The notes: generated from the letters alone by a model not told the origin. A stretch of 64,000 bases of DNA from Dehalococcoidia bacterium (GCA_965249275.1 CBDFLQ010000007.1:736001-800000), one strand, 5' to 3'. Shown: positions 33,907-60,737, counted from the first letter of the stretch. A program made the numbers and translations.

Positions 33907-34057
33907 GTCACACTCCTATACAGACGGGTGCGGATTACATCCTCCCGCCATCTGAAGGCCGGGCCTCGGTTATACTACCATCATTGCCGTTTATCCTCCT
34001 CCCTTCATTTGACAATAAAGACGGCTGACCCTAGACTTTTCATCAAAGGAAATCAAA

Positions 34058-34150
34058 ACAAGGGGAGCTTGGAGAGCCAGGCTGAGAGGGCGGCCCAATA
34101 GATGCCGCCGACCCCTATGACCTGAACTGGGTAATGCCAGCGGAGGGACG
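34058..34150 (+). ncRNA. TPP riboswitch (THI box)
   Basis: GGGG..GGCTGAGA..GACCC..ACCTGAACTGGGTAATGCCAGCGGAGGGA directly upstream of thiG. Confidence 0.95.
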
Positions 34151-34162
34151 GGTATCGGACGC

Positions 34163-34194
34163 AAATGCCGCCTCCAGTAGGCGGCATTTTTGTT
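34163..34194 (+). terminator. Riboswitch expression-platform terminator
   Basis: AAATGCCGCCT-CCAGT-AGGCGGCATTT-TTGTT. Confidence 0.85.
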
Positions 34195-50972: not shown

Positions 50973-52139
50973 CTAATCAAATACCCTGATGATGTCGTAG
51001 GACGTGGTGCGCTGGGCGGGGATACGGCCAATGTCCTTAATCAGGCTCTGGAAATCCTCCGGCGACATGTACTGGCCGTAAGGCGCGCCCGCCGACCTGG
51101 ATATCTTCTCATTCATCAGCGTGCCGCCGAAGTCATTGGCCCCTGCGTTTAGGCAGACCTGGGCGAACTTCTGTCCAAGCTTGACCCACGACACCTGGAT
51201 GTTCTTAATCCAGTTGTTGAGCATGATTCGGGACACGGCGTGCATCCTCAGGTCTTCCATGCCTGTGGGCCCGGGTCTCACCCCGCCCTGCAGGTAAAGG
51301 GGCGAGTCCCAGTGAACGAACCCCAAGGGCACGAACTCGGTGATTCCGCCGGTCTCCTTCTGGATGTCCCGGATAAGGGCAATGTGGTTGGCCCAATGTA
51401 CCGGAGCGTCGATGTGGCCATACATGATGGTGGAGGTGGATGGCAACCCGACTTCGTGGGCGGTCTTGATAATCTCCACCCAGTTCTCGGCGCTGAGCTT
51501 GTTCTTGGTCAGGCGCTGCCTTATCTCGGTGTCGAGGATCTCGGCGGCGGTGCCAGGAATGGAACCCAGGCCTACTTCTTTGACCATGAGCAGGAAATCT
51601 CGGATGCTCAGGCCCGTCTTCTTGCTGCCGTACTGCACCTCGAAGGGCGAGAAGGCGTGGACGTGGATGCCCGGGACCCGCTCCTTGATGGCGATCAGCA
51701 TGTCCCGGTACTCGTAGCCGGTCATCTTCGGGTGGAGTCCGCCCTGCATGCAGACCTCCGTAGCTCCCGCCTCCCAGGCCTCCTCGGCCCGGTCGGCGAC
51801 CTGTTCAATGGTCAGGGTCTCAGCCTCTTCGTCACCGAAGTGCTTGGCGAAGGCGCAGAACTTGCAGCCCGTATAGCAGATATTGGTGAAGTTGATGTTG
51901 CGCACCGTAACGAAGGTGACCATGTCGCCGACGGTACGCTTTCGGAGCTCGTTGGCGGCGGCGCAGAGAGCGTGAAGCTCCAGGTCCTTTGCGTCGAAGA
52001 GCTTTATGGCCTCTTCCACCTCGATATCTACGCCGTTTAAGGCCCTGTCCAGGATACGCGCCGTTTCCGGCTCGACGGCCGAAAGAAGCCGGTCAAGGCT
52101 GGATTCAACGACTCCGGGAAATGCAGTATCAATTACCAT
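50973..52139 (-). CDS. cofH: FO synthase subunit CofH
   Basis: NINFTN.C..GC.FCAF, PGTAAEILD, IQ.SWVKLG and ND.GGTLM.E.ISR.AGA motifs. Confidence 0.94.
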   Translation of the reverse strand: MVIDTAFPGVVESSLDRLLSAVEPETARILDRALNGVDIEVEEAIKLFDAKDLELHALCAAANELRKRTVGDMVTFVTVRNINFTNICYTGCKFCAFAKHFGDEEAETLTIEQVADRAEEAWEAGATEVCMQGGLHPKMTGYEYRDMLIAIKERVPGIHVHAFSPFEVQYGSKKTGLSIRDFLLMVKEVGLGSIPGTAAEILDTEIRQRLTKNKLSAENWVEIIKTAHEVGLPSTSTIMYGHIDAPVHWANHIALIRDIQKETGGITEFVPLGFVHWDSPLYLQGGVRPGPTGMEDLRMHAVSRIMLNNWIKNIQVSWVKLGQKFAQVCLNAGANDFGGTLMNEKISRSAGAPYGQYMSPEDFQSLIKDIGRIPAQRTTSYDIIRVFD

Positions 52140-53332
52140 CGGGTCTCCTCATCCTTTACGTAGCCATCCTCATCTATGAAACCGCGCACTGCGGCCTCCA
52201 TGACGGGGTTCAGATATCCGGGTTTGTCCACAATGTATTCGGGGTAGATTGCCAGCCTCTCCTTCAACTCGTAGCCGAGAGACTCGGTGTTTTCCTTAAG
52301 CTCCGTGATCATGGGCCAGGCCTTCTCAGGGTTGATGAAGTCTTTGGTGACGGGGGATACGCCTCCCCAGTCGTTGATCCCGGAAGCCAGGTAGAACTGG
52401 TATGCGTCGGCGGTCAGGTTGGGTGGGGCCTGGATGTTCATTTCGGGGCCCAGGATTAGCCGAGCCAAGGCAATGGTGACGGCCATGTCCACCGCCGAAG
52501 GCTCTCCGTGGGCCCTCATGCGGGTGTCGGGCTTGGCGCGGAAGTTCTGGATTATCACTTCCTGAATGTGGCCGTACTCTTCCTGAAGCTCTTTGATGGC
52601 AAAAAGGGTGTCGACCCGTTCGTCCAAGGTCTCTCCGATGCCGATGAGCATGCCGGTGGTGAACGGGACCAGCATCTCGCCGGCGTAGCGCATTGTCTGG
52701 ATTCGTATTGCCGGGTCCTTGCCCACACTGCCGAAGTGGGCCTGTCCCCTCTCCAAGAGGCGCGGGCTGGAATTCTCCAGCATCAGGCCCATGCTAACCG
52801 TGACCTCGCGAAGCTGGGCCATCTCCTCACGCTCCAGCACCCCGGAGTTGCTGTGGGGAAGGAGGCCCGTCTCCTCGAATACCATGCGGCACATATCGAC
52901 AAGGTAGTCGGTCATGGAGGGGTACCCGAGCTCCTGAAGGTGCGTCCGAGCCATCCTGTGCACGTCTTCCGGCTTCTCACCGAGGCTGAAGAGGGCTTCT
53001 TTGCATCCCGCTTTCCGACCAGCCTTGGCCACGGCGAGCACCTCGCCGGGTGTCATGGTCTTGGCGTCGGGGTGCTTGGGGCCCTTGACGAAGGTGCAGT
53101 AGCCGCAGCGGTCTCGACACAGGTTGGTCAGGGGGATGAAAACCTTGCGGGAGTAGGCAACGCGCCGCCCCTTGGCACTTTCGGTGGTCCGGGCGGCGCA
53201 TGCGAGAAGAGCGGGAATCTCTGCGCCCTCGGCTCGGACCAGCCGGTATGCCTCTTCTCTCGATAGCGGCTTGCCGTCCAGGACTTGCTGCAGGCAACGC
53301 TCGATTTGGATATCGGTGGAAACGTAGACCAC
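52133..53332 (-). CDS. cofG: FO synthase subunit CofG
   Basis: SRKVFIPLT.LCRD.C.YCTF, GCKEALF, QEVIIQNF.AK, IQAPPNL and D.GGVSP.T.D motifs. Confidence 0.94.
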   Translation of the reverse strand: MVYVSTDIQIERCLQQVLDGKPLSREEAYRLVRAEGAEIPALLACAARTTESAKGRRVAYSRKVFIPLTNLCRDRCGYCTFVKGPKHPDAKTMTPGEVLAVAKAGRKAGCKEALFSLGEKPEDVHRMARTHLQELGYPSMTDYLVDMCRMVFEETGLLPHSNSGVLEREEMAQLREVTVSMGLMLENSSPRLLERGQAHFGSVGKDPAIRIQTMRYAGEMLVPFTTGMLIGIGETLDERVDTLFAIKELQEEYGHIQEVIIQNFRAKPDTRMRAHGEPSAVDMAVTIALARLILGPEMNIQAPPNLTADAYQFYLASGINDWGGVSPVTKDFINPEKAWPMITELKENTESLGYELKERLAIYPEYIVDKPGYLNPVMEAAVRGFIDEDGYVKDEETRW

Positions 53333-53855
53333 GTGTGTCTCCGAGAGCGGCAGTTACCGTAGAGTCGTCAAAGTCGAGCGAGGAGTCAAAATAAGCCTGT
53401 CCAACAAGCTATCACGCGGAATGGCCGCGAGTCTATCCACACGCCTATTGAATGTCAAATCCACATGCCCTTCAGTTCCATATGGGTTAGCTAACATATG
53501 ACAATGAACCGAGACGTGGACAATCAATGGAAAACAGCTTTGTGTTTGATTGATTGCGGGGTGTAGGCACGATTTTTGATTGTTTGTTAATGGCGGGACT
53601 AACTCCAATTCTCGCGCCGCGAGCCATCCACGGTCGGTAGAGAAAAGGGGACATTGGGGCACTTGAAGTTTGAGTTACTCAAAAATTGCTCGCAGGCAGA
53701 GATTAGCGAAAAGAGGGGGTGAGGGGAAGGGGGTGATGTCACACCGTGGGAGCGACCTTCTAGAGAATTGGGTCTAGGAAAACGTGCAATCAGATTTGCT
53801 TGCCGCTTAATCCAGGAATCAGGAAATAGTATGAGGGCAAATTAAGAGGGTTAAG

Positions 53856-53884
53856 TTGACATTCCTGCCCATGATCGTTACATT
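53856..53884 (+). promoter_or_regulatory. sigma70-type promoter
   Basis: TTGACA(53856-53861)-17 nt-TACATT(53879-53884). Confidence 0.75.
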
Positions 53885-53890
53885 TGCAGT

Positions 53891-53983
53891 ATTAGAATCC
53901 ATTGGGTTACCTCCCGGTATACGGGACAAATAGGCACCCAATCATTAAAACCCCAGGGACGCCTTCGGCGTCCCTGAATTTTT
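53891..53983 (+). ncRNA. Candidate structured sRNA plus terminator upstream of the NYN gene
   Basis: AUUGGGU/ACCCAAU stem enclosing UCCCG-GUAUA-CGGGA; then CAGGGACGCC-UUC-GGCGUCCCUG-AAUUUUU. Confidence 0.65.
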
Positions 53984-53999
53984 AGGAAACAATCTGACA

Positions 54000-54629
54000 A
54001 TGTCCATCGCCGCGAGAGAGCAGAATCGGATTCGCGTGATCGTGTTTGTCGACTTCTGGAACTTTCAGTTAATGGTCAACGACTTAGAGCGTGGTTTCCC
54101 GGTCGACTGGAAGAAGTTGGGACCCCTAATCGCACGGACTGCCCTGGAGGTCGTAGACGCTGACTCGCAGTTATCCTATCAAGGTATGAACGTATACGCT
54201 TCCTTTGATCCATTCGGTAAAAAGGACGAGGCCTTTCGCAGATGGGCTACGAATAGCCTGGACAAATTTTCCGGTGTACAGGTGACCATGATTCCACGGC
54301 AACGAAAGCGAAAGGGGTCCGTTTGCCCAGCATGTCATGAAGAGTTGTCGACATGTTACAAATGCGGTTCGGACATGAGAGGCACGGAAGAAAAGGGAGT
54401 CGATACACGCATTGTGACCGACATGATTAAGTTGGCTTGGGTTGACAACTATGATGTCGCCGTATTGCTTTCCTCGGACAAAGACTTCGTACCTGTCGTC
54501 GAATTTCTCGGTACACGAGGTATTAAGACCATACATGCAGCCTTTCCGCCTCAGGGTTCAATGCTGACGCAGCATTGCTGGGGCAACATCAGCATACCTA
54601 ACACAATGGAACAATTTAGACGCGCTTAG
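54000..54629 (+). CDS. NYN (PIN-like) domain ribonuclease with Cys4 zinc-ribbon insert
   Basis: VFVDFWN, CPAC..CYKC, EKGVD and LSSDKDF.P motifs. Confidence 0.88.
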   Translation: MSIAAREQNRIRVIVFVDFWNFQLMVNDLERGFPVDWKKLGPLIARTALEVVDADSQLSYQGMNVYASFDPFGKKDEAFRRWATNSLDKFSGVQVTMIPRQRKRKGSVCPACHEELSTCYKCGSDMRGTEEKGVDTRIVTDMIKLAWVDNYDVAVLLSSDKDFVPVVEFLGTRGIKTIHAAFPPQGSMLTQHCWGNISIPNTMEQFRRA

Positions 54630-54682
54630 CCTCACGTTCGAGACTCACTTGCTCCTCCACCCGCAAGAAAATTGGTGAAGGT

Positions 54683-56020
54683 TTATTTGCCAATGCAGAA
54701 GCGGGAGAAGATGGTGTGGAGGAGGTCTTCGGTCACGGTCTCGCCGGTGATTTCTCCGAGGGCGGTCAGGGCGGCGGTGAGGTCTATGGTGACGAAGTCG
54801 TCGGGCAGGCCTTTAGTTAGGGCATTTTCCGCAGAGGCAAGGTGAGTTGCAGCAGATTCCAGGGCCGACTTGTGCCGAGCATTGGACACCAGTACCTCAC
54901 CCGACCCCAAACTCTTGCCGTTGAGCGCCACCTCAACCATCCTCTCCCTCAGCTCATCCAGGCCCTCCCCCGTGATCATGGAGGCCCGTACGGCGCCCGA
55001 TGGAACAACAGAGGGGTCGGCAATGTCCGGGAGGTCTGACTTGTTGGCGACCGTCACTGCTCCTTTGCCCGGGAGCCGACCAATCAGATTGAGGTCCTGG
55101 TCGGTGAGAGGTTGACTGGAGTCAAGGACGAGCAGGACAAGGTCGGCTTGGGCGAGAGCCTTGCGGCTGCGCTCTATGCCGAGATGCTCAACGGGGTCAG
55201 AGGTGTCGGTCAGTCCGGCGGTGTCCACCAGCACAAATGGGATGCCGTCGATATTGGTCACCTCTTCGACCGTGTCCCGGGTTGTACCGGCGATGGGTGT
55301 CACAATGGCCCTCTCTTGGTCGAGTAGGCGGTTGAGGAGGCTCGACTTGCCGACGTTGGGACGCCCCACTATCGCGACCCGGACGCCGTGGCGATAGACA
55401 ATACCCGTATCGGCGGCGCTAAGGAGTTGGCGGACAGCGGAAGCCGCGTCACGGATTGCAGGGAGGGGATCTTCGAGTGGGACATCGTCGTCCGGGAAGT
55501 CGATTCGCGCGGTTAGGTAGGCCAGGACTTCCAAAATGGCGGTGCGGGCTTCCTTGATACGCTGGGAGAGTCCGCCCTGAAGCCCGTTCATAGCAACTCT
55601 CAAGCTAGCGTCGGTCTTGGCTTCTATGACATCCAGGACGGCTTCGGCCTGGGTGAGATCTATGCGTCCGTTGAGGAAGGCGCGCAGGGTGAACTCGCCG
55701 GGACCCGCGGCACGGGCCCCGCAACGGAGAAGGGCTTCGAGAACGGCCTGCAGGGGTACGAGGCCGCCGTGCCCGTATATCTCGACGGTGTCCTCGCAGG
55801 TGTAGCTGTTGGGGGCCAGCATGCAGGTAGCCATCACCTCATCGAGGATCGACCCGTCGTCAGGGTCGACTATCCGGCCACGGCTCATATAGCGGTGGGA
55901 TAGTCGGCCGCTAAACACCTTCCCGGCAAGGGCAAGGGAATCGGGGCCGGAGAGCCGCACAACACCGATGGCCCCCTCACCTATGGGTGTGGCAATTGCG
56001 GCTATGGTATCGTCGTACAC
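54683..56020 (-). CDS. mnmE: tRNA modification GTPase MnmE
   Basis: DTIAAIATP, GEFT.RAFLNG, GRPNVGKSS, GTTRD, DTAG, NKSD and FCIGK motifs. Confidence 0.97.
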   Translation of the reverse strand: MYDDTIAAIATPIGEGAIGVVRLSGPDSLALAGKVFSGRLSHRYMSRGRIVDPDDGSILDEVMATCMLAPNSYTCEDTVEIYGHGGLVPLQAVLEALLRCGARAAGPGEFTLRAFLNGRIDLTQAEAVLDVIEAKTDASLRVAMNGLQGGLSQRIKEARTAILEVLAYLTARIDFPDDDVPLEDPLPAIRDAASAVRQLLSAADTGIVYRHGVRVAIVGRPNVGKSSLLNRLLDQERAIVTPIAGTTRDTVEEVTNIDGIPFVLVDTAGLTDTSDPVEHLGIERSRKALAQADLVLLVLDSSQPLTDQDLNLIGRLPGKGAVTVANKSDLPDIADPSVVPSGAVRASMITGEGLDELRERMVEVALNGKSLGSGEVLVSNARHKSALESAATHLASAENALTKGLPDDFVTIDLTAALTALGEITGETVTEDLLHTIFSRFCIGK

Positions 56021-56118
56021 AGCGTCGGGCCTCCCTCGCAGCAATTATATGCCAAGGGAGAAAACTCCAATGATGCAGGGGTGTCGGCTATACTGGGCCG
56101 GACTTCGGGAGGTCAAGA

Positions 56119-59104: not shown

Positions 59105-59734
59105 TCACCAATTCGCCGGTTTCGTGATGACGCCAACAGGGTCGGTTAGACTGTCAGGAAACTGGCTGATCCTCAGATGGCTCTTCCAGAGACGCTTGAC
59201 GTAGGTCGCTGCTTTGGCCAGGTCCATGGGGCTGGTGTTCCTGGCATCCGGGTTCACGAGGGTGACTCGAAGGTCCAGGTCGTCCCTGACGGACCTCATC
59301 GCACCGGCGAAATCAGCGTCATTGGAGACGACGACCGCCTGCTCATATTCCCCTTTGAAGCCATCGATCAAGAGTCGAGTCGCCAGATTTACGTCCGATC
59401 CCTTCTCTTCCGAGTCCTTAACCAAAACATGAGCGGGCAGGCCCGGTACGGGCTCGGCAAGAGGACGACGCTTTACTCCAGAGCGGAAGACGCCGTAGTA
59501 GAACTCAAAGTCCGGGAGGGTTGCCAGTGCTCTCAGGTACGCCTGCTGTCTTTGGGGTTGGGCAAGATTGCTGGGACGTGCATCTAATCGGGCGGTGAAG
59601 TAGCAAATCTTGTGGATGGTGTCCAGGGGAAAGAGGGTCTCGGCCATCTTCCGTAGGTCTAGCCATCTGAATGGGGTGTCTTTAAGGGCTCGGTAGTAGA
59701 GATTGAAGCCATCAATGTACAGATTGGTTATCAA
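59105..59734 (-). CDS. NYN (PIN-like) domain ribonuclease
   Basis: YIDGFNLYY, YFTA, EEKGSDVNLA and SND.DF motifs; start is TTG 59734 or 59755. Confidence 0.9.
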   Translation of the reverse strand: MITNLYIDGFNLYYRALKDTPFRWLDLRKMAETLFPLDTIHKICYFTARLDARPSNLAQPQRQQAYLRALATLPDFEFYYGVFRSGVKRRPLAEPVPGLPAHVLVKDSEEKGSDVNLATRLLIDGFKGEYEQAVVVSNDADFAGAMRSVRDDLDLRVTLVNPDARNTSPMDLAKAATYVKRLWKSHLRISQFPDSLTDPVGVITKPANW

Positions 59735-59756
59735 TCTCCGGTTCCTAATTCTCAAT

Positions 59757-59818
59757 CAAAGACAGAGACCGCCCTTTGAGGCGGTCTCGACCCTACCGCC
59801 GAGGCGATAGGGGTGGTA
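59757..59818 (-). ncRNA. Candidate two-hairpin sRNA upstream of the NYN gene (copy A)
   Basis: CCCUAUCGC-CUCG-GCGGUAGGG, then GAGACCGCC-UCAAAG-GGCGGUCUC-UGUCUUU. Confidence 0.65.
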
Positions 59819-59823
59819 AAGGC

Positions 59824-59852
59824 AGAATAACTACCAGACACGCATCTGTCAA
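59824..59852 (-). promoter_or_regulatory. sigma70-type promoter
   Basis: TTGACA(59852-59847)-17 nt-TATTCT(59829-59824). Copy B has GCGACA-17 nt-TATTCT. Confidence 0.75.
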
Positions 59853-60185
59853 TGCACTGTGCCAGTTCATCCGCGCACACAACGAAAAGGGTGTTTCGTC
59901 GGTATTCCCGCGACGATGGATACAAAGACAGAGACCGCCCTTTGAGGCGGTCTCGACTCTACCGTCGAATCGATAGGGGTGGTAAGGACAGAATAACTAG
60001 CAGACACGAATTTGTCGCTGCTTTTACCACTTCATCTGCGCACACAACGGAAAGGGAGTTTCGTTGGTATTCCACGTGACGATAGGCTGGGTTGGGGCAC
60101 TGGTAGCTTCCTGAACGCTAAGGTATACTCGCGGGCGCATGGCCCCGCCGCCACACTATCCTGAGCGAGGGCCAAGGAGACCTCT

Positions 60186-60737
60186 ATATTAGACGACAGT
60201 TACAGAAACCATCTTAGGCCGAGAGTGGCCATTTTCATCGACGGAAGCAATCTTTATCATGCCATGGAAGAGTCCTGCAGACGAACGGACCTGAACTTCC
60301 CGAGGTTCGTGCAGAAATTGCTGCGGGGACGCCATCTGCTGAGGACCTATTACTACAATGTCCTCCAGGACAGCAGACGCAAGCCGCAGGGATTCGGGCA
60401 GCAGCAGAAGTTCCTCTCGGTGCTCCACAACACACCTTACCTGGAAGTGAAACTGGGCCGCTCCGCGATCAGGAAAGGCGTGGCGGTGGAAAAGGGCGTG
60501 GATATAATGCTGGCCACAGACATGCTCCAGTTAGCATGGAAAGACCTGTATGACACCGCAGTCCTGGTGAGCGGGGACGCCGACTTCGCCTACGCGGTAA
60601 AGACAGTCAAGGACATGGGCAAGTTCGTGGAAGTGGCCTGCTTCGAAGTCAATCAATCGAAAGATCTGGTAGAAATATCAGATTCTATAATTGAGCTTTC
60701 ACCGGAATTCTTCGAAGGGGTCTGGGCTAACAACTAA
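60186..60737 (+). CDS. NYN/LabA-DUF88 domain protein; probable ATA start
   Basis: AIFIDGSN, YYY, EKGVDI.LA.D, VSGD.DF and GK.VE motifs; AAGGAGA lies upstream of ATA 60186. Confidence 0.88.
   Translation: MLDDSYRNHLRPRVAIFIDGSNLYHAMEESCRRTDLNFPRFVQKLLRGRHLLRTYYYNVLQDSRRKPQGFGQQQKFLSVLHNTPYLEVKLGRSAIRKGVAVEKGVDIMLATDMLQLAWKDLYDTAVLVSGDADFAYAVKTVKDMGKFVEVACFEVNQSKDLVEISDSIIELSPEFFEGVWANN

Follow-up and report, generated by a model that had tools for sequence, protein, structure and literature searches.

A conserved small structured RNA linked to an NYN nuclease gene with a zinc-ribbon-like insert: a candidate variant on the RNA-antitoxin theme

A small structured RNA and the gene of a predicted NYN nuclease form a conserved pair in bacteria, a conclusion that is well supported by the comparison of homologous loci, and we infer a function for the pair that would make it a new variant on the RNA-antitoxin theme. 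The pair was found in a stretch of 64,000 nucleotides from a Dehalococcoidia bacterium (GCA_965249275.1, CBDFLQ010000007.1:736001-800000), which we call the window and from whose first letter all coordinates are counted. An initial annotation of this DNA had proposed a toxin gene that was acquired at the 3' end of mnmE, is expressed by terminator read-through and is held in check by the RNA encoded before it.

Organization of the module

The module begins with a sigma-70-type promoter on the plus strand (53856-53884), with TTGACA at 53856-53861, a spacer of 17 nt and TACATT at 53879-53884 (10/12). TTGACA-17-TACATT is the only promoter-like site that the promoter scan found on this strand between 53300 and 54800, a region in which both strands together hold three such sites, the mean for shuffled sequences being 1.2. 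The promoter precedes a small structured RNA of ~93-95 nt on the same strand (53890-53984), which scores 94.2 bits with our covariance model of the RNA, R1, and whose ends we placed from the promoter and the U-run. The RNA starts with a single-stranded motif (53891-53900, AUUAGAAUCC in the window), followed by hairpin 1 (53901-53942), the linker AUCAUUAAAACCC (53943-53953) with a second ACCC at 53950-53953, and hairpin 2 (53954-53984). Hairpin 1 is made of a helix P1 of 7 bp (AUUGGGU/ACCCAAU), the inner helices P2a and P2b (CCU/AGG and CCCG/CGGG) and an A-rich 3' bulge (ACAAAU). Hairpin 2 resembles an intrinsic terminator, and the terminator scan gave it a stem CAGGGACGCC/GGCGUCCCUG of 10 pairs, 8 of them G-C, with a loop of 3 (53954-53976), and then the U-run AAUUUUUA (53977-53984). 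The same scan scored hairpin 2 as a terminator on the minus strand too. The predicted fold of 53880-54010 has an energy of -43.7 kcal/mol (z = -4.33), and none of 200 shuffled sequences folds as well.

The NYN gene, with a predicted LabA-like product of PIN-like fold (Pfam PF01936) and 209 aa, follows on the plus strand (54000-54629, stop included), and only AGGA at 53984-53987 resembles a Shine-Dalgarno element before it. The promoter, the bulged hairpin at 53901-53942, the terminator at 53954-53976 and the start codon ATG at 54000 are all present as the initial annotation had described them. It had also made expression of the gene depend on read-through, and the promoter scan saw no promoter between the terminator and ATG 54000. 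On the minus strand, cofG (52133-53332) lies upstream of the module and mnmE (54683-56044) is convergent with the NYN gene.

The NYN protein

The protein matches PF01936 over residues 12-184 with 55.1 bits, the cut-off being 24.2. We found that D18, N21, E131, D160 and D162 are invariant in 61/61 aligned homologs and that D135 is at least 90% conserved. Equally invariant (61/61) are the four cysteines C109, C112, C119 and C122 (CPAC..CYKC) of a zinc-ribbon-like insert (54324-54365, plus strand), which is preceded by the basic run RQRKRK. Both the intact acidic NYN residues and the CPAC..CYKC insert had been noted from the single sequence, and the 61-homolog alignment bears them out. The zinc-ribbon models of Pfam match the protein below their cut-offs only.

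In the structure predicted by AlphaFold2 (pLDDT 90.5, pTM 0.84) the four-cysteine insert sits between a strand (93-99) and a helix (134-147). The top solved folds found with Foldseek are the LabA-like 2qip (E 6e-8) and the NYN domain of MARF1 (5yaa/6fdl, E 5e-5), and weaker matches are Sir2 structures, which have only a Rossmann-plus-zinc-ribbon layout in common with the model. By this modeling the protein is of PIN-like fold and nearest to solved NYN structures, and a ribonuclease activity is predicted. A sequence-profile search of the Protein Data Bank with E up to 0.01 found no solved structure, and NCBIfam gave no family matches.

PADLOC gave a partial match of the protein to HEC-09 (PDLC04163, 3.4e-13), in which residues 114-186 align with positions 86-159 of the 203-position profile. 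The toxin families ToxN/AbiQ, CptN and TenpN were not matched in Pfam and PADLOC, where NYN and HEC-09 were the only hits. Related proteins are numerous, since a word-index search gave at least 948 of them at E up to 0.001 among 1009 candidates, and the best 120 of these at least 948 proteins are 55-92% identical to the window protein.

Conservation of the RNA structure

The leader of the NYN gene is, judging from the covariation among its homologs, a conserved structured RNA new to Rfam 15. Searching Rfam 15 at E up to 1 with 53000-55000 of the window and with five homolog loci gave no relevant match, RF03085 included. These scans returned two microRNA models only, both far below gathering scores. 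Scanning a single genome for each species, we confirmed 207 loci and kept the best 80 for the RNA work.

The upstream regions of the homologs share a hairpin CAGGGACGC-loop-GCGUCCCUG with a U-run, and the 95 nt before this hairpin are alignable throughout. The consensus runs from the promoter through the 5' single strand cAUUAgAACCC, hairpin 1, the linker AUnAnnACCC, hairpin 2 and the U-run to the start codon. Its hairpin 1 consists of P1 (7 bp), a short inner helix, the A-rich 3' bulge and a distal CCC/GGG helix. The gap from the terminator to the start codon is usually 13-30 nt in the homolog loci and holds a Shine-Dalgarno-like element.

We obtained the structure in two ways. RNAalifold on a MAFFT alignment of 67 sequences, which is independent of R1, predicted P1 and hairpin 2 with compensatory changes in 11/15 pairs, and single-sequence folds have the same architecture across the 67 sequences. 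In the alignment of 80 sequences, which was fitted to R1 and so leans towards the structure of the model, 90.3% of the cells are paired, as against 26-48% (max 47.7%) in slid controls, and 16/22 pairs change on both sides. Covariation across homolog leaders had been named in the initial annotation as a check of its reading, and these compensatory changes provide it. None of 500 shuffles reached the covariation score of the 80-sequence alignment. All 7 pairs of P1 have changes on both sides, while hairpin 2 has 5/9 compensatory pairs and a GGG/CCC that is invariant in 80/80 sequences. The inner helices are merely 74-78% paired because their register varies. The ACCC motif is at least 90% conserved in both alignments (67 and 80 sequences), and the linker is made up of conserved columns in both as well. 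Frequent G-U pairs, which would be A-C mismatches on the other strand, argue that the conserved element is an RNA of this strand and not a DNA palindrome.

The signals around the RNA are kept too. A promoter with at least 8/12 lies at the same place in 57/80 loci, its -10 ending 11-14 nt before ACCC, and T makes up 5 or more of the 9 nt that follow hairpin 2 in 68/80 loci. The initial annotation had suggested an alternative pairing of GGGUU (53904-53908) with AACCC (53949-53953). This pairing exists in the window but is not conserved among the homologs, because the P1 positions covary with the 3' arm of P1 and ACCC is nearly invariant. We saw no tandem repeats in the RNA, which is a single copy with just two loosely similar ACCC-plus-hairpin elements.

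Linkage of the RNA to the gene

The RNA is strictly linked to the gene. Where the initial annotation expected the RNA to accompany its homologs, we found with R1 that it adjoins the gene in 80/80 loci (the best 80 of the 207). It scores 49.6-112 bits in 79 of the 80 loci and 33.6 bits in L087; 78 loci and the window are found at E up to 1e-8, and L058 scores 95.1 bits. R1 also matches in G036 with 26 bits. The RNA stands beside the gene on 5/5 plasmids, on 6/7 viral contigs that encode a relative of the NYN protein, and in 3/3 metagenome loci. No intact four-cysteine gene without the RNA was seen among the loci read. The window's own genome has one copy of the RNA by the R1 search, and 0/150 other genomes of the class have it in a search with stricter filters.

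The hosts of the best 80 of the 207 loci include Dehalococcoidia, Chloroflexota, Latescibacterota, Alpha- and Gammaproteobacteria, Spirochaetia, Binatia, Vicinamibacterales, Longimicrobiales and Rhodothermales, and a few of them are cultured strains, e.g. Labrys okinawensis. The five plasmids are small (6.3-12.4 kb), and that of Novacetimonas hansenii has 6.3 kb and five annotated genes. A tblastn search of GenBank phage records at E up to 1e-10 gave no match to the NYN protein.

Divergent loci, minimal variants and orphan RNAs

In four loci from three lineages (L100, L101, L109 and L110) the RNA is on the strand opposite to the gene, and therefore it is not a co-transcribed leader there and would be more than a leader. 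Each divergent copy comes with either a -10 of its own or a complete promoter, and the terminator scores on the strand of the RNA alone. The Cobetia and Aeromonas plasmids have the RNA immediately ahead of the start codon but in reverse orientation (32.3 and 30.5 bits), with a TATAAT box or similar and a U-run on the strand of the RNA, and the proteins are 35-36% identical to the window's with the four cysteines kept. The metagenome locus L109 has the same arrangement as Aeromonas. Since the RNA abuts the start codon in L100, L101 and L109, antisense control of the 5' region of the NYN gene is possible there. In L110 a full-length RNA (59.6 bits) is encoded opposite to the gene, with TTGACA-18-TAGCAT and a terminator that scores on the strand of the RNA only. 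About 80 nt separate this promoter from the start of an NYN gene with 207 aa and four cysteines, no NYN gene is found downstream of the divergent RNA, and there is room for a separate promoter. The dependence of NYN expression on read-through, as first proposed, is hence not universal, the RNA being divergent from the gene in these four loci. We looked for further divergent loci; a plasmid search with the L110 protein returned the same five records, and an alignment of the Cobetia/Aeromonas type found one locus in the viral contigs, which was already known.

The RNA also varies in size. Minimal forms of ~75 nt have no inner helix. Among the distant co-directional variants, the plasmid forms and L106 are likewise without it, and the terminator stem of L107 is unrelated. 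This variation suggests that the common core is the 5' ACCC-type motif with hairpin 1. L108 encodes a protein of 30% identity with one CxxC only and has no R1 match. The upstream region of L108 looks structured in a different way by eye.

We found the RNA intact after loss of the gene in three cases. In the congener G003 the RNA (96 bits) remains where the gene is mostly deleted, and in L025 a second copy of the RNA (96.9 bits) has no intact NYN gene after it. The third case is a full RNA (74.7 bits) on the viral contigs L118, L122 and L124, which are identical in sequence; it is followed by ~22 first codons of the gene, foreign ORFs and a remnant of the last 35 codons. These contigs came from a hairpin-pattern scan of the viral contigs that gave 13 loci, i.e. 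three known ones and these three identical ones with the full RNA and a disrupted gene. The other seven have a hairpin match only, with ~18-23 bits, and were taken as unrelated G+C-rich hairpins. Three gene losses and zero RNA losses fit toxin-antitoxin logic, weakly because the gene is a ~6.6 times larger target. The orphan RNAs are uninformative on whether the RNA is an obligate part of a ribonucleoprotein.

Genomic context and mobility

The gene is accessory, as had been supposed. It occurs in 2/41 genomes of a search of relatives that counts in the window's own genome, is found neither in 8/8 congeners nor in 39/40 relatives, and lies within an indel. Relative to the congener G002, which has 87 nt here, the indel with the module spans 53744-54683. 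The genes cofG and mnmE are adjacent in G002, G005 and G001, with 87, 21 and 15 nt in place of ~940-1200 nt of the window, and the 21 and 15 nt of G005 and G001 replace a stretch slightly larger than 53744-54683. G004, G006, G007 and G008 are uninformative because their cofG and mnmE flanks are far apart. In G003 the promoter and the RNA are kept (96.2 bits) and the sequence from about 54003/54019 to 54601 is missing, so that all that is left of the gene is a few codons at either end, and a search at E up to 1e-30 found the NYN protein nowhere else in this genome. By comparison with these genomes the module is an indel within the genus, which may reflect either an insertion or a loss.

At 69 loci we took the closest flanking ORF of 100 aa or more in both directions, which gave 131 ORFs, of which 129 were scanned after removal of two duplicates. 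No Pfam hit at E up to 1e-5 was obtained for 72/129 ORFs, and among the 57 with a hit no family occurs more than three times. Fifteen of these 57, from 14 loci, are of mobile or defence type, i.e. integrase, Arm-type DNA-binding, DDE transposase, terminase, portal, HNH, Uma2, PIN, PLD/DpnI, RES, and restriction or methylase proteins. Housekeeping genes are common among the neighbours of the module. As no flanking family occurs more than those three times, the module would have no protein partner, and its surroundings are often of mobile or defence type. Judged by these contexts, the module is autonomous and mobile. The 3' end of mnmE, which the initial annotation had taken for an integration site, we rejected as such, since 0/129 flanking ORFs are MnmE; no integrase is seen at the site in the window either. 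The position of the module next to mnmE appears incidental across the loci surveyed.

A second RNA-NYN module in the window

Five PF01936 matches are encoded in the genome and three of them in the window. A second module lies 5 kb from the first on the minus strand (59757-59852), with a promoter at 59852-59824 and a putative two-hairpin RNA of ~60 nt, made of hairpin A (59812-59791), hairpin B (59788-59765) and then UGUCUUUG. It precedes NYN gene 2 (59755-59105, minus strand), which matches HEC-09 over the full length (8.1e-35), and NYN gene 3 (60225-60737, plus strand) lies on its other side. Between the two genes we found two tandem units of 166 nt that are 86-89% identical, the second copy being at 59923-60083. 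Read on the minus strand, the unit contains a promoter, ACCACCCC, hairpin A, UC, hairpin B and UGUCUUUG, and the first copy has the promoter TTGACA-17-TATTCT and stops 1 nt short of the gene 2 start. Tandem Repeats Finder gave nothing in 59600-60400, and the 166-nt repeat came from a separate repeat search; the unit was not found elsewhere in the genome.

Relatives of gene 2 occur in 71/401 genomes sampled from the phylum, a tally that two unpublished genomes, G365 and G190, enter without being used for any other result. A genome may carry several of these relatives, and stop codons interrupt some of them. The two-hairpin element precedes the gene 2 homologs in 28/28 loci read, 5/14 of its predicted pairs are compensatory, and an Rfam search with it gave no match. 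By sequence, the RNAs of the two modules are unrelated, so that one window shows two RNA families beside NYN genes.

Comparison with known systems

The type III systems ToxIN, CptIN and TenpIN consist of an RNA gene, a terminator that sets the ratio of RNA to protein, and an endoribonuclease gene. They are found on plasmids and chromosomes and have a role in phage defence. The classical antitoxins are tandem repeats that are processed by the toxin, and the toxins have the ToxN fold. Our module resembles these systems in that the RNA gene adjoins the nuclease gene with a terminator between them, and differs in its single structured RNA without a tandem repeat and in the PIN-like NYN fold. With no tandem repeats, an NYN fold and no Rfam match, it belongs to none of the known type III families.

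By analogy, the closest counterpart of the module is AbiF-RCd22 of the Clostridioides difficile phage phi027 (abiF RNA motif, RF03085). Its description (PMC12373285) gives the RNA gene a SigA-type promoter and the RCd22 RNA 98-132 nt, two motif copies and a Rho-independent terminator. There the abiF toxin gene has no promoter of its own and is reached by read-through transcripts, deletion of RCd22 raises the toxin mRNA 17-fold, and RCd22, supplied in cis or in trans, binds the toxin directly and neutralises it (PMC12373285). Both systems have the order of promoter, RNA, terminator and gene, no promoter before the gene, and two related RNA elements. In contrast, the AbiF toxin is Abi_2/HEPN-like and ours is an NYN protein, and the RNAs are unrelated, with no RF03085 match at E up to 1. 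A neutralisation of the NYN protein by its RNA would be expected here by analogy with RCd22.

The protein shares its fold and conserved acidic residues with LabA-like NYN proteins (NYN.COG1432, 2qip) and the NYN domain of MARF1, and differs from them in the four-cysteine insert and the private small RNA. It is also without the OST-HTH domain that is common in its relatives. The PIN classification lists the LabA-like group as 'function unknown' (PMC5499597). HEC-09 is an NYN defence candidate for which the accessible part of the preprint reports no protection against the phages tested and mentions no RNA partner (bioRxiv 10.1101/2024.01.29.577857). Our protein is, like HEC-09, a stand-alone NYN protein in defence contexts, but it matches HEC-09 over residues 114-186 only, whereas the match of NYN gene 2 is full length.

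In our search of the literature, NYN proteins were nowhere described with an RNA partner. 'NYN domain' and 'type III toxin-antitoxin' occur together in no paper found. The word NYN is absent from the highest-ranking papers on candidate structured RNAs, whose supplements could contain the motif under a different name, and occurs once in a CRISPR paper of the same search. By this search, the control of a nuclease by its own RNA, which is our most likely reading of the module, has not been described for the NYN family.

Interpretation of the module

We put at an even chance the reading that the module is a type III-like toxin-antitoxin or abortive-infection pair, with a presumed toxicity of the protein and a presumed binding of the RNA to it. 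In such a pair the strong promoter would produce the RNA and most transcripts would end at hairpin 2. The NYN message would be present on read-through transcripts only, so that the RNA would be in large excess over the protein. Binding of the RNA would keep the nuclease inactive, the probable contacts being the ACCC-plus-hairpin elements of the RNA and the basic zinc-ribbon insert of the protein. Events such as phage attack, shut-off of transcription or loss of a plasmid could lower the supply of the RNA, and the nuclease thus freed would cut cellular or invader RNA. We infer the binding, the inhibition, the toxicity and the instability of the RNA in this scheme.

An alternative hypothesis could be that the RNA and the nuclease form an obligate ribonucleoprotein, in which the RNA is a cofactor, scaffold or specificity element like RNase P RNA or the omega RNAs of IscB/TnpB. 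A cofactor that the enzyme requires would explain the strict linkage just as well, and the linkage is kept in either orientation, the layout favours an excess of RNA, the unpaired ACCC motifs are invariant and the stem GGG/CCC is conserved, and the insert is basic and zinc-ribbon-like. However, the RNA has no variable guide-like segment, its positions being either covarying and paired or nearly invariant and its loops short, and minimal forms of ~75 nt manage without the inner helix, so we regard this hypothesis as rather unlikely. Alternatively, the RNA could be no more than a cis-acting autoregulatory leader, in which the NYN nuclease binds or cuts the hairpins of its own message or the terminator throttles expression, with the rne and rnc leaders as precedents. 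Such a leader would be expected to look as it does in the window and in 80/80 genome loci (best 80 of 207), where the RNA is co-directional and directly upstream, as it is on 3/5 plasmids, in 6/7 viral loci and in 1/3 metagenome loci; the usual 13-30 nt from terminator to start codon and the lack of a visible internal promoter agree with it. We nevertheless consider it distinctly unlikely, since in four loci the RNA is encoded divergently and has a promoter and a terminator to itself, the RNA is intact after gene loss in three cases, and its sequence is kept across phyla far beyond the need of a plain terminator.

A riboswitch, or another attenuator that senses a ligand or signal and controls read-through into the NYN gene, could explain the conserved unpaired ACCC, the A-rich bulge and the terminator right before the gene. 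It is nonetheless very improbable, as no antiterminator pairing is conserved, the bulge and the inner helix are missing from the minimal variants, divergent loci exist and the nuclease is the only associated gene. The divergent loci weaken the pure leader and the riboswitch readings alike. We give almost no credence to the view that the palindromes act as DNA, i.e. as a recombination or transposition site or a protein operator, even though the module is mobile and palindromic arms would covary symmetrically too. Against it are the G-U pairs on one strand only, the strand-specific U-run and fixed-distance promoter, and the absence of a conserved recombinase beside the module, and the highly variable P1 sequences fit a helix and not a protein site.

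Implications

We speculate, with somewhat less than even confidence, that LabA-like NYN nucleases are generally the protein halves of RNA-protein modules, with one private RNA per subfamily, as the two unrelated RNA families of this window illustrate, and that these modules make up new families of type III-like toxin or defence systems with RNA antitoxins and PIN-like toxins, carried by plasmids, prophages and islands in many phyla. At least one structured RNA family, and probably two, would be added to those that Rfam covers. The present work suggests that NYN defence candidates are better judged together with the RNA upstream. The module is smaller than 1 kb, and an acetic-acid bacterium that can be cultured carries it on a plasmid of 6.3 kb, so a clear experiment is possible. 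AbiF-RCd22 is the only case of a non-repeat RNA antitoxin that we found in the literature consulted. If the toxin-antitoxin reading is true, RNA-antitoxin systems would be extended to PIN-like NYN toxins and non-repeat RNAs, and a widespread group of nucleases of no known role would have its first functional handle.

Termination and possible antisense transcription at the first module

The terminator hairpin of the first module, which joins a ~95-nt structured RNA (53890..53984, plus strand) to a four-cysteine NYN gene (54000..54629, plus strand), also scores as a terminator when it is read on the minus strand (53952-53978). A terminator scan around this module found no other terminator 3' of the convergent mnmE (54683-56044, minus strand), and hence mnmE transcripts may run antisense through the NYN gene as far as the 53952-53978 hairpin. 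In the spacer between cofG and the NYN gene, ~100 nt (53479-53589) have many matches elsewhere in the genome and in congeners at 72-88% identity, and this stretch appears from its sequence to be a member of a dispersed short repeat family. Elsewhere in the window, a TPP riboswitch lies at 34051-34165 on the plus strand (60.6 bits versus a gathering score of 54.3).

The module and a distant relative at other loci

The RNA-NYN module in an Erythrobacter record (L054:2839-3627) has a terminase large-subunit gene on one side and a portal gene on the other. The viral-contig locus L108 (2380-2500) has a distant NYN relative, 30% identical and with a single CxxC. R1, the covariance model of the first module's RNA, gives no match there; judged by eye alone, a long closing helix enclosing an ACACCC segment comes after a -10-like box, and this arrangement may represent a third RNA type.

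Further NYN genes in the window

A second, HEC-09-like NYN gene lies with its upstream RNA units at 59105-60083 on the minus strand. Upstream of it come a promoter and then a conserved RNA of ~60 nt that has two hairpins and a U-run; this arrangement is present as two tandem 166-nt units. This RNA was found 5' of the gene in all 28 of the 28 homologs examined, has no Rfam family, and is unrelated in sequence to the ~95-nt RNA of the first module. The third NYN gene (60225-60737, plus strand; 170 aa), oriented divergently to the second, gives the best match to PF01936 in the whole genome; inspection by eye revealed no obvious hairpin-plus-U-run leader upstream of it.

In the phylum genome sample, the HEC-09-like NYN family occurs in multiple copies, a single genome giving as many as six matches, and copies with internal stop codons or reduced to fragments are common. 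Such a pattern would be expected if the gene were selfish or of the toxin type.
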